This document shows positions 1,684 to 11,466 of a stretch of 32,422 nt of DNA, one piece after another. The stretch spans positions 1 to 32,422 of the forward strand of contig JALGVI010000030.1 in NCBI GenBank assembly GCA_029838215.1. The letters are read 5' to 3'. This stretch comes from Candidatus Helarchaeota archaeon (GTDB lineage Archaea; Asgardarchaeota; Lokiarchaeia; Helarchaeales; RDOG01). A program made the translations under genes and the position numbers. Position 1 is the stretch's first letter; every line of letters starts with the position of its first letter. Below the pieces are notes generated by a model. That model searched no databases, was not told where the DNA came from, and saw nothing but the letters and a program-made list of their open reading frames with translations.

Positions 1684-2676
1684 ATGCGAATGAATGATGG
1701 TAGTGATGATTTTTCCGACTCTAGGTATTCCGATAACGACTGGACTTCGCAGGATGCGAAAACAGTAATTGATGAGTTTAAAAAAATTCATGAAATTGAA
1801 GAAGACATCGTACCCATATCTGAAGGAGTGAGTGATGTCTCAGAAGTCACGATCGAATTAGAAGCCTTACGAAAAATGCTTTTCCACGTGTATGAATTCG
1901 GCAACTTTGAAGATGCAATAAAAAAGTGGAAAGAAGTTTACGGGTTAATGATAGGAAGAATCGAATATGGTCGATTGATCATAACAGATGCAGCACCCAT
2001 TACCCATGGAACGGCTCGTGGCGTGGAATTTAAGAAAGATGATTACGTGTTCGCAGCAAAACTCAATGACATGATAACTGCAGACACTGAACGAAAAGAG
2101 TTTTTCGTTGGATGGTATCATAGCCATCCCGCCATTGGCTTGTTTCTATCAGGAGTGGATTTAGTTAACCATTTAGGATATCAATTAGTAAATGAAGTTG
2201 CGGCGGCAATCGTCTTCGATCATTGTCTTCTTCTTGAAAAACAGATCCCGTTCAAAGTATTTCGTCTTGATTCGGTGGACTTCTCGAGCCAAGATGATTT
2301 GGGTTATCATGAAGTTAGTTACATCATTCCAGGGATCAGCGAAGAAGAACAATTCCTTTTAGCAAGGGAAATGCACGATGAAATAGCCAAGGATTTGAAA
2401 AAAACACGCAGCAATTCAGCAGAGAAATTGTTCCGCAAGCAAGTAGAAAGCGAATATAGGGAATTCATGAAAAGAGTTAGAAAAGAACACATTGAATACG
2501 AAAAAACGGATTATAAGAAATTACGAAAGGGAAAGAAGGTCAGCAAGGCCAACCGTACTGCTCCCAGGAAAAAAGGCGGAAAGAAAAAACCAAAGGCGAA
2601 AAAAGCAAAAAAATCGAAGAAAACAAAGAAAGCAAAGGAGAAAAAGAAATCTAAAAAATCAAAGAAGAAGTCTTAA
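1684..2676 (+). CDS. JAMM/MPN+ (Rpn11/CSN5-like) metallo-isopeptidase with C-terminal helices and Lys-rich tail
   Basis: KEVYGLMIG (catalytic Glu) and GWYHSHPAIGLFLSGVD form an intact E...HxH-x7-S-x2-D motif. Confidence 0.9.
   Translation: MRMNDGSDDFSDSRYSDNDWTSQDAKTVIDEFKKIHEIEEDIVPISEGVSDVSEVTIELEALRKMLFHVYEFGNFEDAIKKWKEVYGLMIGRIEYGRLIITDAAPITHGTARGVEFKKDDYVFAAKLNDMITADTERKEFFVGWYHSHPAIGLFLSGVDLVNHLGYQLVNEVAAAIVFDHCLLLEKQIPFKVFRLDSVDFSSQDDLGYHEVSYIIPGISEEEQFLLAREMHDEIAKDLKKTRSNSAEKLFRKQVESEYREFMKRVRKEHIEYEKTDYKKLRKGKKVSKANRTAPRKKGGKKKPKAKKAKKSKKTKKAKEKKKSKKSKKKS
2515..2673 (+). repeat. Lys-rich low-complexity coding tract (KKAKKSKKTKKAK-type)
   Basis: The last ~53 codons of the MPN gene are dominated by AAA/AAG. 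Confidence 0.85.
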
Positions 2677-3252: not shown

Positions 3253-3771
3253 TCATACGTTGATGTCTTCAGGACGATCTTCAAAGGCACGAAGTGGAAT
3301 ATCTTTACAGATACCATCGGGAGTAGTGCGTCGAATGGTGAGCGGTAAGATTTTTAGCTTTAGCTCGTATTCAGCAATGGAGATGGGTTCTTTTTTCACG
3401 TATGGAGGAATTTCAGACACCAGTATGGGAGCGGACATTGAGATTTGCAGGGCTCTTGCACCTATGATCCTGGAGCGTTCATACTTGGTTAGATATCGAG
3501 GTCCAATCCAATCGATTTTGATTTTTTTCAATCCTTCACGGACTAATTCGTCAATACTTGCCTCAATATCTTCAACGTGCACTTCCACTTCATCTTCAAG
3601 TTCGGTTTCTTCAGGGATTTCGACCTTTTTTTTCTTGGCTTTCTTTATTGTTTTCTTTATTTTTCGGACTTTTTTAGCCTTCTTGGCTCTTTTTGTTTTT
3701 TTTGCTTTTTTTGCTGTTTTTTTCGCTTTAGGCGTTTTTTTAGAAGAAGTTTTCTTTTTTGCCTTACCCAT
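3253..3771 (-). CDS. rpoK: DNA-directed RNA polymerase subunit Rpo6/RpoK (RPB6 homolog) with long basic+acidic N-terminal extension
   Basis: LTKYERSRIIGARALQISMSAP...IAEYEL...LPLTIRR..PDG matches the RPB6/Rpo6 core. Confidence 0.95.
   Translation of the reverse strand: MGKAKKKTSSKKTPKAKKTAKKAKKTKRAKKAKKVRKIKKTIKKAKKKKVEIPEETELEDEVEVHVEDIEASIDELVREGLKKIKIDWIGPRYLTKYERSRIIGARALQISMSAPILVSEIPPYVKKEPISIAEYELKLKILPLTIRRTTPDGICKDIPLRAFEDRPEDINV
3625..3771 (-). repeat. Lys-rich low-complexity coding tract (H1-like) at the RpoK N-terminus
   Basis: The first 49 aa contain 27 Lys, 2 Arg and no acidic residue. Confidence 0.85.
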
Positions 3772-3881: not shown

Positions 3882-5549
3882 TCAAGTTCTCAAGAAATCC
3901 GAGCTTGATTTTCTAATAACTCCTGATAAGAGATTCAAACGGATCATATCTTCCAAAAGGAGAATAATTTGAGTATTAGTTATTGCAACTCTTTCGTGAA
4001 TTTCTTGAAATGTCAATACACCATCGTCTTTTTCTTTGACCATTTGAATGATCAGCTCCCGAATACCCATTTCATTTACGAGCTGGTCATCTTTAATGTC
4101 ATAAAAGAGGTTACGTAAGAATCCATTTTGTTTTAAATCAGTAATGATCTCGCGAAGCACCAATTCTGAATAGTTCAATCGTTCAGAAATTTCTTTTATC
4201 GTCATTTTTGCCTTAGAACCGACAAGTTGAGTAACTTCAGTCGTGAAGGAATTGATCCAATCCGGAACATCCTTTGGAAATTCTTCAATTTCTTCAATCG
4301 TGAATTCAAGCTTATGATAGTCGGACCCTGTCGCCAAGTTCGGATCATTCAACCTGTAAATGTCGAATCCATAATTCTTACGTCTCTCATCATACTTGGT
4401 GTGGTCAAATACGAGGGCAATGGCTTTTGGATTAGCACTTTGAAAGCCTAAATGATTGATGATGTCAGTGTGAGAAAGGAATAGATTTAACCCGGGATGG
4501 CTATGATACCATCCAACTATGAATTCACCCTTACCTTCAGCATAAAGAGCGTCATCAATTTGAGCTGCCTTGATATAATGTTCATCCTTGAATGCAAATT
4601 CGGAGGAGCTGCCAGACATTATTGGCACCGCATCCACGCAAAAAACATCGTCTCCTTCAATCCGACCTATCAGCCATCCGGCTGTCTCCACCCATTTACT
4701 CTCAGGAATACCACTATTAGCATAATATAACATGTGAAGCATCATGTTACGATATGCCTTGCAATTTATGATGACTTTTCCTTTTTCCTTGATTTGAGCT
4801 TTTTGGAGGTGAAGCTTATCATCATTTACGAAATTTGACAATACCTTGTGGAAAGTACCTAGTAAATTTGCCCTCAATGCCGGTCCTGCAAATGATAATC
4901 GGTCAGATTGGGGCTCTATTGATGAAACGAGAATGTCCTTTGCTTCACTTGCTTTTCCTTCTAATAAGTATTTTAAGAACAGCGTTAGATCGAGACCCAT
5001 TCCAGAAACATCAAGCATTTCAAGTTCTTGCATGTGGACATTTATCAGAGACATGGCTTCTTCTTTTTTGTTTAAGAGGAGAAAGATAATTGCCTTGAAA
5101 TTCTGATAAATTATTGCTCTTTCATGTATGAACCTCTTTAGGACACCTTCTTCCAGATCAACTCGTTTTTTTGTAAAATCAATTGCCTTATCGAAAAACT
5201 TTAATGCCGTCTGAAGATTCTTATCGCCTTCAGTATCATCAAATGAAAGGAGACATGTTCCAATGTCTGCACAACATTTAGCAATATGTTCCAAGGTATT
5301 CGCCTTTTCTGCAGAACTTTTCGATATAACTTTAATTGATTCGTCAAATACCTTGATTGCTTTTTTATATTCACCCAGTTCTGAAAAACAAGCAGCCGCA
5401 CGGTAAAGAAACGTGGCAATCTTTAATTCTCTATCATCAGCTTCACTTTTTTTAACTTCTGAAATCAAAGCCAAATAAATTTTTATGGCATCTTGGAATT
5501 TACCCTGGGTTTCCATTAAATGGGCTTTTTCTTCCATTGACATGCCCAA
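3882..5549 (-). CDS. multidomain protein: TPR-like helical repeats + JAMM/MPN+ + two winged-helix (PCI-like) domains
   Basis: TPR-like motifs (AAACFSELGEYKKAIKVFDESI); MPN with VETAGWLIG and GWYHSHPGLNLFLSHTD; C-terminal MTIKEISERL...LREIITDLKQNG and LTFQEIHERV...LLEDMIRLNLLSGVI. The start may be ATG 5543 rather than TTG 5549. Confidence 0.85.
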   Translation of the reverse strand: MGMSMEEKAHLMETQGKFQDAIKIYLALISEVKKSEADDRELKIATFLYRAAACFSELGEYKKAIKVFDESIKVISKSSAEKANTLEHIAKCCADIGTCLLSFDDTEGDKNLQTALKFFDKAIDFTKKRVDLEEGVLKRFIHERAIIYQNFKAIIFLLLNKKEEAMSLINVHMQELEMLDVSGMGLDLTLFLKYLLEGKASEAKDILVSSIEPQSDRLSFAGPALRANLLGTFHKVLSNFVNDDKLHLQKAQIKEKGKVIINCKAYRNMMLHMLYYANSGIPESKWVETAGWLIGRIEGDDVFCVDAVPIMSGSSSEFAFKDEHYIKAAQIDDALYAEGKGEFIVGWYHSHPGLNLFLSHTDIINHLGFQSANPKAIALVFDHTKYDERRKNYGFDIYRLNDPNLATGSDYHKLEFTIEEIEEFPKDVPDWINSFTTEVTQLVGSKAKMTIKEISERLNYSELVLREIITDLKQNGFLRNLFYDIKDDQLVNEMGIRELIIQMVKEKDDGVLTFQEIHERVAITNTQIILLLEDMIRLNLLSGVIRKSSSDFLRT

Positions 5550-5570
5550 TTCCTAGCCTTTAAAAAAAGA

Positions 5571-6119
5571 TTAATCAACCTTAATATTTTTCACGAGTGC
5601 TTTAGCCAATGTAGTAAAGGCTTCATTGACATTTTTATTTTCCTTAGCAGAGGTCTCTATGAAATCAATGCACCCGATTCGTTCTTTCAACGCCTTGCCT
5701 TCTTCAGAGGATACTTCCTTGTTCTCCAAATCGATCTTGTTTGCTATGAGTACTTTCTGGTGATTTCCTTGTATGTGTTTTTCACAGTTTGGTAGCCAAT
5801 CAGTTTCAATTCTGTTAAACGTGGATTTTCTTGATACATCGTAGACAATTAGCACTCCTTGACTTCCTTGGAAATATACATTTAGCATTTGCGCCCAACG
5901 ATCCTGTTGACCAGCCAAATCCCATAGAGTAAACTTGATCTTCGTGCCATCATCAAGTTCCAAAGTCTTTAGGTATATATTTGCACCCATCGTTGATTTA
6001 TATTCTTCACTGAACTTATCCGTTACGTATTTTTTCACGAGTGATGTTTTGCCTACGGCAGGTTCGCCGATCAGAATCACCTTAAACACATATAGCGGTA
6101 GCTTCTTCATATCTTGCAC
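5571..6119 (-). CDS. Rab-like small GTPase (Ras superfamily)
   Basis: G1 GEPAVGKT, G2 YKSTMG, G3 WDLAGQ, G4 NKID, G5 ETSAK. No C-terminal prenylation Cys. Confidence 0.95.
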   Translation of the reverse strand: MQDMKKLPLYVFKVILIGEPAVGKTSLVKKYVTDKFSEEYKSTMGANIYLKTLELDDGTKIKFTLWDLAGQQDRWAQMLNVYFQGSQGVLIVYDVSRKSTFNRIETDWLPNCEKHIQGNHQKVLIANKIDLENKEVSSEEGKALKERIGCIDFIETSAKENKNVNEAFTTLAKALVKNIKVD

Positions 6120-6375: not shown

Positions 6376-6873
6376 TTAGAGTTTTAACGACATGAGATAG
6401 GCGTCTTCGCCGTCTTTGTAATATCCTGAAAGAGTTTTTACGATTTTAAAGTTAAATTGCTTGTACATTTCAATTGCAGGAGCATTAGAAATGCGGACTT
6501 CTAGAATGGCTTCTTTTACACCATAATCTTCTTTCATTGATTGCAATCCTGCTTTTAAGAGATGAGTTGCGATTTTTTGTTTCCTAAATTGTTCTCTCAC
6601 GGCAATAGAAACCAGATGTCCCTTTTTTGTCCATTTTAGACCAAAGTTCGAAATTCCCTTCTCTTCACGAAACATGCAGTAACCGATGAGCGAGTTCTCG
6701 GAAGTATGCTCAGCTACCAAAAAGCTTTTGGGATATTTATAATAGATTTGTCGAAAGAAGTAATCGGGATAATTTTCGGGCAAGCATGTCAAATTAATTT
6801 CCATGACCTGTTCCAAATCATCTTCCGTGAAGTGCCTGATTTTAAAATGGTTTGGTATTGTTTCTTTTTTCAT
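6376..6873 (-). CDS. ard1: Ard1/Naa10-like N-alpha-acetyltransferase
   Basis: INLTCLPENY, GHLVSIAV..QFRKQKIA, LEVRISNAPAIEMY, YYKDGEDAYLM. Confidence 0.9.
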   Translation of the reverse strand: MKKETIPNHFKIRHFTEDDLEQVMEINLTCLPENYPDYFFRQIYYKYPKSFLVAEHTSENSLIGYCMFREEKGISNFGLKWTKKGHLVSIAVREQFRKQKIATHLLKAGLQSMKEDYGVKEAILEVRISNAPAIEMYKQFNFKIVKTLSGYYKDGEDAYLMSLKL

Positions 6874-7038: not shown

Positions 7039-8358
7039 GTGAATGGAATTTCAAGCAGGCGACCATTTAACTTTTATCAGATTCGAGAGTGTATTGAAGA
7101 AGAATTCGAGATAATAGATGAGAAATTTGATTATATGAGTGGTATACCTGTTTTTCTCATCAATCCGAAACCAATACACGGTTTGCTGGAAGATGGGTTT
7201 AGTAGATTGATAAGGAGCTTTGAACAAATGGATCTCATTCCTGTCTTGCGAGATCCCAACGCTCTCGAAAGGGAGCTCATTCGTTATGATCTTCAGGTCA
7301 AGACATCCGACAAGTTTCTCACGCTCCAAATAGTTCCCGTGAAAAAAAAGCCTCAAAAGGAAAGACGTTACTTGGTAAATTTAGGGCTTTTCATTGCCAC
7401 GTGTTTTTCTGTAGTTTTTGCTGCTTTCATATATGTTTTTTTCATGGACCCTCTTTATGGGGGTTTATTTCCATATTTCAGGGACATGAGTCTTCCGTTT
7501 TTGATAATGTTTTATGCCATTAGCGTGTTGGGAATTTTAGGATTGCATGAAGCAGGGCATTTGGTTGCTCTTAAAAAACACGACATTCGCGGGACGTTGC
7601 CTTATTTCATTCCACTTCCATTCCCACCTTTAGGGACTTTGGGGGCCATCATAAAGCAGGAAAGTCCTGCAAAAAACAGGAATGAGTTATTTGACATGGG
7701 ATTATCGGGACCTTTGGTGGGCTTTGTTGTCTCAGTAATAGTTTTAATAATAGGATTGCTCCTGACTCGAACCATTAATACTGATGACTACATTAATTTT
7801 ATGGTTATCTTGAGTAATACAAGCCCATTTTTGCCCGACACGACACATTACGAGTTTGCCCAGAGTCTCCGTGGTCCACCAATGCCACTTCCTGCAATTT
7901 TTTATATTCTGGAGCCGATCTTAAAGCCTACCGAATTATTTACCACCATGAGCCCTCATTATGGCGTGACTCTTCCCGATCAATATTCGTTCATGCATCC
8001 GATAGCTTTTGCTGGCTGGGTTGGTTTACTGCTGACGAGTTTGAACATGATGACTGTCGGACAGTTAGATGGCGGTCATGTCATCAGGGCTGTCTTCGGA
8101 AATAAATCTTTTAGAGTTCCTTATACGAATTATTATTTACCATATTACAAGTTAGCGGCTTTAATTGGATTGGCTTTTCTTGCAGTATATAACCCAATTT
8201 TCGCATTCTTGATCTTGGCACTTTCCCGTTTTTCATTGACGCATCCAGGTCCGTTAAATGACGTGTCATCTCTTTCAACGTCTCGCAAAATTGCTTTTAT
8301 TGGATTTTTAATAGTCATTGTATTGTCCACTACACCAGGAAGTTTATTAATGCTTTAA
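7039..8358 (+). CDS. site-2 protease (peptidase M50) intramembrane zinc metalloprotease
   Basis: HEAGH in a TM helix, PFPPLGTLGA, AGWVG, NMMTVGQLDGGH; GTG start. Confidence 0.92.
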   Translation: MNGISSRRPFNFYQIRECIEEEFEIIDEKFDYMSGIPVFLINPKPIHGLLEDGFSRLIRSFEQMDLIPVLRDPNALERELIRYDLQVKTSDKFLTLQIVPVKKKPQKERRYLVNLGLFIATCFSVVFAAFIYVFFMDPLYGGLFPYFRDMSLPFLIMFYAISVLGILGLHEAGHLVALKKHDIRGTLPYFIPLPFPPLGTLGAIIKQESPAKNRNELFDMGLSGPLVGFVVSVIVLIIGLLLTRTINTDDYINFMVILSNTSPFLPDTTHYEFAQSLRGPPMPLPAIFYILEPILKPTELFTTMSPHYGVTLPDQYSFMHPIAFAGWVGLLLTSLNMMTVGQLDGGHVIRAVFGNKSFRVPYTNYYLPYYKLAALIGLAFLAVYNPIFAFLILALSRFSLTHPGPLNDVSSLSTSRKIAFIGFLIVIVLSTTPGSLLML

Positions 8359-8566: not shown

Positions 8567-9454
8567 ATGGCTTGGCAACCATACGAGATTCTGGATAAAA
8601 CAGAAAATACGGAAAATATTTACAAGATAATCGTCCTAGGGGATGGATTTGTAGGTAAGACAGCCATTACCGTCAGATTTTGCGAAAATCAGTTCAAAGA
8701 TGAATACATCATGACCATTGGGGTCAATTTTGGAACAAAGAAATTTCGTTATAAAGGAACGTCCTATACGCTTCAAATTTGGGATATTGCAGGTCAAGAG
8801 AGATTTGGGGCTTTTAGAACTTCGTATTATAGTGCTGCTGTAGGCGTAATTTTGGTTTATGACGTAACGAATAAGTTGACATTTCTTGATCTACCAAATT
8901 GGACTTGTGAATTTCAACAATTAATTGGAACCAAACCTGTAGTCGTAGTTGGCAACAAGCTAGACTTGCCGGACTCGGGACAGGTTGACTCAAGAACGGG
9001 CAGACCTTATGAGAAACAGGTGGGTTTCAAAGAAGGTAAGTGCTTTGCAGATTCCATAAATGCGACTTTTCTTGAGACTTCAGCAAAGGGAAATTATAAT
9101 ATTGATAACATGTTTACGGCTTTGGTAGATTCGGTAGATGAAAAATTGTTTTCAAACATGCTCAATGTAAATTCGTTTAATTCGATTGATTTAGGCTTTA
9201 ATAAGCTCTATAGTCTCGTTTCAGGAAATGACGTCAGCAAGATTTACGACTCATTAATGATGCTAAAGCATTCTATTTTTCAACAAAATCCATATTCTGT
9301 GGTGCTTGGGAATATAAACGAGTGGATAAATTACCTGCCAAAGGCTCCTTATACATCAGAAGTTAGTAGCTTATTACTTAAAAGCATGGATGTCTGGCAA
9401 CAATATTATGAGCAGAGCTTGAAAGAAGGCGAGGCAGTCTCTTCAAGAATTTAA
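8567..9454 (+). CDS. Rab-like small GTPase with G4-alpha4 insert and ~100 aa C-terminal extra domain
   Basis: GDGFVGKT, YIMTIGVNF, QIWDIAGQERF, LVYDVT, NKLD, ETSAK; SD-like GGAGGG upstream. Confidence 0.93.
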   Translation: MAWQPYEILDKTENTENIYKIIVLGDGFVGKTAITVRFCENQFKDEYIMTIGVNFGTKKFRYKGTSYTLQIWDIAGQERFGAFRTSYYSAAVGVILVYDVTNKLTFLDLPNWTCEFQQLIGTKPVVVVGNKLDLPDSGQVDSRTGRPYEKQVGFKEGKCFADSINATFLETSAKGNYNIDNMFTALVDSVDEKLFSNMLNVNSFNSIDLGFNKLYSLVSGNDVSKIYDSLMMLKHSIFQQNPYSVVLGNINEWINYLPKAPYTSEVSSLLLKSMDVWQQYYEQSLKEGEAVSSRI

Positions 9455-10611: not shown

Positions 10612-11466
10612 TCATTCTTCGATATTTATGATCTTGTAGTTGTGTTTCCATGCAGGTATGTTTTCAAGCATGGCTTGACGGCTTTGTTCGTTCCAACCGT
10701 AATTTTCGAGGTAACGAATCCATTGCGTCATGTTCTGCACGGTTACGGAAAAAGGGACTTCCTTAAATATGGAGTATCGAGTGATTTTAAGAGCCACCGT
10801 TGCAGCTGCTTGGTTGTCAATGGTTTTCAAGATTTGTTCCAGTTCATCAAATGCTTGATCGATGGGCAATGCTTTAACCTTAGGTATCATGATGGACTGC
10901 CTGTGTTCTTTAATGAGATCGTAAATGCTTGCGAATAGGCGATTGATATTCCGACCGCTTTTCGCAGATACTTCGATATATGGTGCGTTAATATATTTGG
11001 CAAAATTTTCGGCTTCATCCGGAGCAACCATTCGGTCAGGCAAATCAACCTTGTTTCCTACGACGATCATCGGCGTCCTGCCTGTTTCATCCTGAAATTC
11101 CAGAACCCAGTTCTCAAGGTTTCCAAAAGATTCATAGACGGTTGTATCAAAAACGAGAATTCCACAAGATGCACCCCGATAATACATGTTTCTCAGGCTT
11201 TTGAATCGGCTTTGTCCTGCAACATCCCAGATTTGGTATTTCATATTTTTTCCATCAAGACGCAAAGATTTTATGAAGAAGTCGGCACCGATCGTCATTT
11301 TATAGCCTGATTTGAAAAGCCCCTTACAGAATCGGGTTCCAATAGCGGTTTTTCCAACGGCTCCGTCACCCAGAAGTATCAATTTATAGAGAGCATCATA
11401 CTCGGCATTATCAGGAAGCGTTTCCAATTGAATGTCATCATCGTCGGATTGGGAAATAATCATCAC
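10612..11466 (-). CDS. Rab-like small GTPase with ~95 aa C-terminal extra domain
   Basis: EYDALYKLILLGDGAVGKT, YKMTIGADF, QIWDVAGQSRF, YYRGA, NKVD, EVSAK. Confidence 0.93.
   Translation of the reverse strand: MMIISQSDDDDIQLETLPDNAEYDALYKLILLGDGAVGKTAIGTRFCKGLFKSGYKMTIGADFFIKSLRLDGKNMKYQIWDVAGQSRFKSLRNMYYRGASCGILVFDTTVYESFGNLENWVLEFQDETGRTPMIVVGNKVDLPDRMVAPDEAENFAKYINAPYIEVSAKSGRNINRLFASIYDLIKEHRQSIMIPKVKALPIDQAFDELEQILKTIDNQAAATVALKITRYSIFKEVPFSVTVQNMTQWIRYLENYGWNEQSRQAMLENIPAWKHNYKIINIEE

Follow-up and report, generated by a model that had tools for sequence, protein, structure and literature searches.

A lineage-specific conserved operon of a Rab-like GTPase gene and a TPR-like/MPN+/winged-helix gene in Helarchaeales

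We analyzed a 32,422-nucleotide (nt) stretch of DNA from a Candidatus Helarchaeota archaeon (GenBank assembly GCA_029838215.1, contig JALGVI010000030.1, positions 1 to 32,422; hereafter, the window) and identified on its minus strand 2 co-directional open reading frames (ORFs), a Rab-like small GTPase gene followed by a gene encoding a tetratricopeptide repeat (TPR)-like solenoid, an MPN+ (JAMM) metalloprotease domain, and tandem winged-helix (WH) domains. The pair is a real, lineage-specific conserved operon in one Helarchaeales lineage, recurring in about 14 assemblies or contigs in the same order and orientation, and on general grounds the 2 genes are most likely co-transcribed. At a probability of about 40%, we favor a model in which the operon is vertically inherited and the GTPase acts as a nucleotide-dependent partner of the predicted isopeptidase.

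Conservation of the gene pair and its limits

The GTPase gene (5571-6110, minus strand; database protein P0063) encodes 179 amino acids (aa) from ATG 6110. An alternative GTG at 6119 would give an ORF of 182 aa (5571-6119), and ATG 6110, preceded by a Shine-Dalgarno-like AAGGTG, appears the more likely start. The second gene, hereafter the MPN gene (3882-5543, minus strand; database protein P0003), encodes 553 aa plus a stop from ATG 5543, which is a more likely start than the alternative TTG at 5549 (ORF 3882-5549). From the GTPase stop to the ATG of the MPN gene, the spacer (5544-5570, minus strand) measures 27 nt, or 21 nt if TTG 5549 is used. A preliminary description of this DNA had reported a same-strand gap of 21 nt and taken it as consistent with an operon; that distance to the TTG is confirmed, next to the 27 nt to the likelier ATG.

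The genome (3.6 Mb) holds 72 Ras-family and 9 JAB matches, and the chance of a Ras-family upstream neighbor is ~2% per gene, so that a single adjacency is weak evidence by itself. Synteny was tested both ways, from the MPN protein and from the GTPase. The full-length MPN family is small, a set of 1.8 billion representatives containing approximately nine clusters at 50% identity, and all orthologs with at least 39% identity had a 175-180-aa Ras-family gene directly upstream on the same strand (loci checked: G001/L031, L038, L039, L040, L041, and one ENA contig without DNA). From the other side, a database search showed the GTPase orthogroup to be discrete, with 14 clusters at 63-100% identity and the next matches at 48% or less, save one outlier at 55%. 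Behind each of four further GTPase ortholog clusters, at a distance of 22-42 nt, there was a co-directional gene, which encoded a JAB domain wherever it was complete; in L062, where the contig ends within this gene, its product was 80-81% identical to MPN proteins of the subclade designated C below. Across the linked loci, the gaps were 27, 26, 26, 21, 22, 30, 30, 35, 42, and 22 nt.

The linked loci fall into 3 subclades, A (the window and L038), B (G001/L031, L040, and L058-L061), and C (L039, L041, L056, L057, L062, and one ENA contig), between which the GTPases share 56-71% and the MPN proteins 37-48% identity. Genes for a GNAT acetyltransferase and an M50 protease lie directly upstream of the pair in subclade A; in subclade B, they keep the upstream side but for an inserted radical-SAM gene, and Rpo6 is downstream; in subclade C, a gene of 124-135 aa is upstream, and GNAT and M50 are downstream. 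The GTPase-then-MPN unit is unbroken across these 3 arrangements. The linked GTPases form one clade (ultrafast bootstrap 100, approximate likelihood-ratio test 92), outside which fall the best matches from the 2 other families of the order (f2 and f3), and the linked MPN genes all lie on one side of a branch with support of 99/98. The GTPase and MPN trees are congruent, both having the form (B,(A,C)). Taken together, the kept pair, the rearranged flanks, and the congruent trees argue for a single origin followed by co-inheritance under selection and not for chance. The operon-like arrangement first proposed from the window alone is borne out in this respect, with the adjacency kept through rearrangements and deep divergence.

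In the window, the GNAT gene occupies 6376-6873 (minus strand) and the M50 site-2-protease gene 7039-8358 (plus strand). Both adjoin the pair in all 3 arrangements, with side and orientation varying, and this 4-gene neighborhood is looser than the pair. Downstream of the MPN gene, after an interval of 110 nt, comes the Rpo6/RpoK gene (3253-3771, minus strand), which holds this place in subclades A and B and not in C; its product in the window has a long N-terminal extension (172 aa vs. 83-115 aa in L031, L040, L058, and L060).

Among orthologous loci, the sequence of the spacer is not conserved, and shortness alone (21-42 nt) is kept. In the window, the spacer contains TCTTTTTTTAAAGG, with a T7 tract (T7AAA) ~20 nt ahead of the MPN start, and then AGGA. 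Judged by its letters, this element could be an archaeal terminator of the oligo-T type, partial or leaky, or else a TATA-like box from which a downstream mRNA with almost no leader is made. The 2 genes might, on such a reading, be mere neighbors that are separately transcribed, the T-rich spacer ending the GTPase transcript and supplying the TATA box from which the MPN gene is read into a leaderless mRNA, and the apparent conservation would reflect slow genome rearrangement among relatives. Runs of T5-T6 in the spacers of L031, L060, L041, and L056 are in keeping with this, as is the partial synteny of other neighbors (GNAT, M50, and Rpo6). We consider it highly improbable, however, given that T-runs are absent from the spacers of L038, L039, L040, L058, and L062, that all other neighbors were shuffled and the pair never was, and that the subclades are deep (MPN identity of 37-48%), a distance over which neutral synteny rarely lasts.

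The linkage is confined to part of the order. An MPN ortholog was identified in all 7 Helarchaeales species genomes, and the GTPase lies beside it in 2 of these, in one of the 3 families; the enzyme does not need a linked GTPase, since the other 5 genomes have the MPN ortholog without it. In family f2, a pyruvate kinase gene that is transcribed divergently adjoins the MPN gene upstream. Family f3 has in this place a co-directional gene for a polytopic membrane protein of ~540 aa with at least 10 hydrophobic segments (L032:4984-6606 in G005, L036:7216-8862 in G003, and L035:4455-6092 in G006), which in L032 ends 6 nt and in L036 21 nt ahead of the MPN gene and in L035 overlaps it. Perhaps the enzyme, which in f3 lacks the second winged helix (WH2), has this protein as its alternative, membrane-bound partner. 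The window genome encodes a 35%-identical homolog of the membrane protein (C125:7801-9483), distant from any JAB gene. Pfam searches gave no match for the f3 540-aa membrane protein, an 807-aa protein of f2, or the 124-135-aa gene of subclade C.

Beyond the order, the sister GTPase clade (P0106; Lokiarchaeia and Thorarchaeia) is unlinked and lies between a histone-deacetylase-family gene and MCM, and the best MPN paralogs in 23 other genomes of the class had no GTPase within 1.5 kb. Among the 9 JAB loci of the window genome, only the MPN gene of the pair has a co-directional GTPase neighbor; a JAB gene on contig C71 is also near a GTPase gene, but the 2 are convergent. A general Asgard link between GTPase and MPN genes was rejected on the basis of these unlinked JAB loci, the 23 genomes, and the sister GTPase clade. 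Synteny across Asgard genomes, which the preliminary description had named as a check, is present within one Helarchaeales lineage, in all 3 subclades, and stops there. Searches among the MPN orthologs and the longer GTPase homologs found no fused GTPase-MPN protein, which is weak negative evidence; the sole long MPN ortholog (P0146, 685 aa) has extra N-terminal TPR repeats and no GTPase, and the longer GTPase homologs, none of which has a JAB domain, are paralogs that do not exceed 44% identity.

The encoded proteins and their relatives

The product of the first gene matched the Pfam Ras family (PF00071) at 1.7e-48, with 164.7 bits against a cut-off of 21.6. The G1-G5 motifs that characterize a Ras-superfamily small GTPase, including the switch-I Thr, are all intact (GEPAVGKTS, the T in YKSTMG, DLAGQ, NKID, and TSAK). 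Its top 60 relatives of solved structure were all Rab proteins (Sec4, Rab8, Rab1, Ypt1, Rab3, and Rab5; ~4e-37 to 1e-31), with Sec4, Rab8, and Rab1 the best at ~4e-37, and its orthologs carry the NCBI label "Rab family GTPase." The window GTPase ends in ALVKNIKVD directly after helix 5, without the C-terminal Cys of a prenylatable Rab, so that the Rab prenylation signal is missing; such a Cys was found in 0 of 14 orthologs. Switch II reads DLAGQQDRW in the window protein, with the catalytic Gln (DxxGQ) present. In part of subclade B (P0072, P0075, P0076, G001, and L060), DLAGD replaces DLAGQ and the other G motifs are kept, which suggests that the subunit is constitutively GTP-bound or that hydrolysis is helped in trans; 2 genes with this substitution are located at L031:10704-11231 and L060:4001-4528. 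Two further Ras-family genes were identified in the window, at 8567-9454 (plus strand; Ras 4.5e-50) and 10612-11466 (minus strand). Their products have C-terminal extensions of ~100 aa, are 31-32% identical to the linked GTPase ortholog of G001, and lie outside the linked clade.

For the product of the second gene, Pfam returned JAB (PF01398; 2e-12, 47.4 bits vs. a cut-off of 22.5), TPR_12, and weak helix-turn-helix (HTH)/WH matches. A structural model (AF2, 16-sequence alignment, mean pLDDT of 82) predicts 4 parts, an 11-helix TPR-like solenoid, a linker, the MPN domain, and 2 winged helices. Predicted secondary structure and Pfam TPR matches place the N-terminal solenoid at residues 1-238 (4830-5543, minus strand). 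Motif conservation together with profile and structure matches places the MPN+ (JAMM) metalloprotease domain at residues 257-420 (4284-4775, minus strand), and the tandem winged helices are predicted by the model at residues ~444-547 (3903-4214, minus strand), with WH2 of the PCI type; folded alone, this C-terminal part reached a pLDDT of 92.

The second protein combines the JAMM motif with an MPN fold, the 2 features of an MPN+ enzyme. Its catalytic HxH...S..D motif is encoded at 4464-4505, with E286 as the Glu, and residues E286, H347, H349, S357, and D360 (P0003 numbering) are invariant in 16 of 16 orthologs. Profile searches with the MPN domain ranked CsRpn11 first (1.4e-22), followed by Rpn11 (5e-18), CSN5 (2.5e-15), and AMSH (~1e-7), and the structure searches agreed (Rpn11, Z 17.2; CsRpn11, Z 16.5). 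The best overall structural match of the tandem winged helices was UFL1/DDRGK1 (Z 10.9 over 126 residues), and WH2 could be superposed on PCI winged helices from the proteasome lid, CSN7, eIF3, and PCID2 with Z 8-10 and a root-mean-square deviation (rmsd) of 1.2-1.7 A. The Pfam PCI family was matched by 5 of 16 orthologs (best 4.9e-7), with no match for the window protein itself. In the predicted structure, the MPN domain sits between the helical repeats and the winged helices, unlike the PCI domain, in which repeats and winged helix follow one another. The structure matches of the TPR-like solenoid (kinesin light chain, LGN, SNAP/Sec17, and the p67phox TPR) had Z scores of 13-16, the generic helical-repeat range.

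Two endosomal affinities were tried for this protein and rejected. An AMSH-type identity would combine an MIT domain with MPN+. Pfam gave weak MIT scores in 7 of 16 orthologs, which look like TPR cross-matches because they are weak and, in the orthologs examined individually, without a single passing stretch, and the window protein had no Pfam MIT match at E 0.01 or better; in addition, AMSH scored ~1e-7 against 1e-22 for CsRpn11. For an ESCRT-II-like tandem WH, the Vps25 match was marginal (Foldseek E of ~1e-2, rmsd of ~9 A). The domain assignments of the preliminary description, namely, a Rab-like GTPase and a protein with TPR, an MPN domain with intact active-site motif, and WH, all stand on Pfam, profile, and model evidence. 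Its analogy with AMSH and ESCRT sorting does not, as the MPN domain is nearest to CsRpn11, Rpn11, and CSN5, WH2 is of the PCI type, and the tandem WH resembles UFL1/DDRGK1 and not ESCRT-II. The eukaryotic relatives of the MPN protein are Rpn11/CSN5 plus PCI, not AMSH/ESCRT.

Compared with known systems, the closest single relative is CsRpn11 of Caldiarchaeum subterraneum, a single-domain enzyme encoded inside a ubiquitin operon (PDB 6FJU and 6FJV; PMC6043591). Among the sequence relatives of the MPN domain it ranks first, with the JAMM motif intact in both, and the window genome also has ubiquitin operons, on contigs C122, C112, and C161. Unlike CsRpn11, the MPN domain here has the 11-helix solenoid on one side and 2 winged helices on the other, and it is encoded behind a GTPase gene, with ubiquitin (Ub), E1, and E2 genes missing from the vicinity. 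Rpn11 and CSN5 of the proteasome lid and COP9 signalosome (CSN) are the nearest eukaryotic MPN+ relatives, and the PCI-like WH2 is a second likeness to these complexes; here, however, all modules are in one chain, with the MPN domain in the middle, and no MPN- partner of the protein was identified. We know of no small GTPase that is a lid or CSN subunit. AMSH/STAMBP, an ESCRT-associated K63 deubiquitinase, shares with the MPN protein the intact JAMM motif and an N-terminal helical module, and differs from it in its far lower profile score than the Rpn11/CSN5 type and in its MIT domain.

On the GTPase side, the conserved Asgard operon of LAMTOR1-like, Rab-like GTPase, and DENN genes (Liu et al., bioRxiv 10.1101/2020.10.19.343400) also keeps a Rab-like GTPase gene in a small operon with presumed regulators or effectors, whereas the partner here is a predicted isopeptidase and the distribution is limited to one Helarchaeales lineage. 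In comparison with p67phox and Rac (PDB 1HH8 and 8WEJ), the solenoid aligns with the p67phox TPR over 161 residues (Z 13.5, rmsd of 2.6 A), a score that lies within the generic helical-repeat range and is exceeded by kinesin light chain, LGN, and SNAP.

A direct partnership and its alternatives

According to the model that we favor, a Rab-like GTPase paralog would have come to sit directly upstream of an older MPN gene, or the GTPase would have been lost once outside the lineage, and both genes would since have co-diverged as a vertically inherited and presumably co-transcribed unit. The GTP-bound GTPase, with intact motifs and no lipid-anchor signal, would serve as a regulatory or localizing partner of the isopeptidase, which it would contact most plausibly via the TPR-like solenoid, by analogy with TPR effectors such as p67phox. 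The isopeptidase would in turn strip the ubiquitin-like modifiers made by the Ub/E1/E2 operons of the genome. That the TPR region binds in a GTP-dependent manner and that this gates the isopeptidase is what we purely infer. A more specific version, which we regard as unlikely, makes the GTPase the dedicated switch of a single-chain, proto-lid- or signalosome-like enzyme, GTP binding recruiting or opening the isopeptidase; if true, this would be a prokaryotic GTPase-gated deubiquitinase without a direct eukaryotic counterpart.

Several points weigh against a direct partnership. Of the 7 species genomes of the order, 5 have the MPN ortholog with no GTPase next to it, and searches of both protein families found no fused GTPase-MPN form. 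The catalytic Gln is replaced in part of subclade B, including G001 (DLAGD), which would fit poorly with a classical switch. In the predicted structure, the likeness of the solenoid to GTPase effectors such as p67phox appears generic only. The spacer sequence is unconserved, and its T7 tract in the window could act as a terminator or TATA box for separate transcription. Finally, promoter sharing alone can explain the retention of an operon.

This last point leads to an alternative that we take to be a serious possibility, namely, a conserved operon without protein contact, in which duplication put a GTPase copy in front of the MPN gene and the 2 then stayed together through the reliance of the downstream gene on a common promoter or through a need for both products under the same conditions; the proteins would share a broad process or have unrelated roles. 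Such an origin would be unsurprising in Asgard genomes, which carry dozens of fast-duplicating and often clustered GTPases (72 matches here), and it would accommodate both the missing fusion and the unlinked MPN orthologs of families f2 and f3. In f3, moreover, the upstream partner is a very different protein, a membrane protein, which suggests that the MPN gene has repeatedly been second in small operons. What speaks for a functional partnership instead is that the pair outlived at least 2 independent local rearrangements that shuffled every other neighbor, that the GTPase is strongly constrained (56-71% identity between subclades vs. 37-48% for its MPN partner), and that the GTPase orthogroup is discrete and restricted to linked genomes, the usual signature of such a partnership.

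The polarity of the partnership could also be reversed, with the MPN protein acting on the GTPase as a GTPase-activating protein (GAP), guanine nucleotide exchange factor (GEF), or chaperone, or stripping a ubiquitin-like modifier from it. Ubiquitylation tunes some eukaryotic Rab and Ras proteins, and TPR scaffolds can present substrates. The DLAGD motif in part of subclade B would suit a GTPase for which hydrolysis is dispensable or supplied in trans by its partner, and a GTPase that has no membrane-anchor signal cannot by itself localize anything to a membrane. Against these points stand the Pfam and structure searches, which gave the MPN protein no domain of the GAP, GEF, longin, roadblock, TBC, or DENN-like kind, and the MPN active site, which is equally conserved in lineages without the GTPase. 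We judge the reversed polarity improbable and retain the GTPase as the nucleotide-dependent partner of the isopeptidase as the preferred model.

Ubiquitin operons and significance of the pair

The window genome carries Ub-like, E1, and E2 genes in classical archaeal ubiquitin operons that are distant from the pair. One operon, on contig C122 (G000:C122; L067:7921-11279), consists of genes for a Ub-like protein, an E1, a 95-aa ORF, an E2, and a JAB protein, and its nearest GTPase gene is 5 kb off, behind unrelated genes. A second (C112:18436-19884) consists of E1, E2, and Ub genes, and at C161:8783-9695, an E2 gene adjoins a gene for a 486-aa JAB protein. The Ub-like proteins encoded on C112 and C122 are, by sequence, candidate substrates of the predicted isopeptidase.

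A second MPN+ gene was identified in the window at 1684-2676 (plus strand), encoding a 330-aa protein (JAB, 5.7e-14) whose identity to the MPN domain of P0003 is 39%. It sits between a zinc-finger gene and a GNAT gene, where the syntenic locus of G001 (L031) has no gene, which indicates either a lineage-specific insertion or a loss in G001.

The literature that we searched, the coverage of which is incomplete, yielded no published GTPase-JAMM operon in Asgard archaea. The pair is built from known domains and is lineage restricted, a small-GTPase operon with a presumed effector. Asgard archaea have scores of small GTPases, very few of which, to our knowledge, have a known partner; computation offers few ways into their function, conserved operons being among them, and this operon points to a concrete candidate effector, one that can be expressed, of a single Rab-like orthogroup. 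The candidate effector is itself unusual, being a predicted isopeptidase of the Rpn11/CSN5 type fused to PCI-like scaffolding. With its distribution limited to one family-level lineage, the pair says little directly about the ancestor of eukaryotes. If the 2 proteins do not bind, the pair would caution that deeply conserved GTPase adjacency in paralog-rich genomes may be operon hitch-hiking, and if they bind in a nucleotide-dependent manner, a relative of the eukaryotic ancestor would have a tie between small-GTPase signaling and the removal of ubiquitin-like modifiers.

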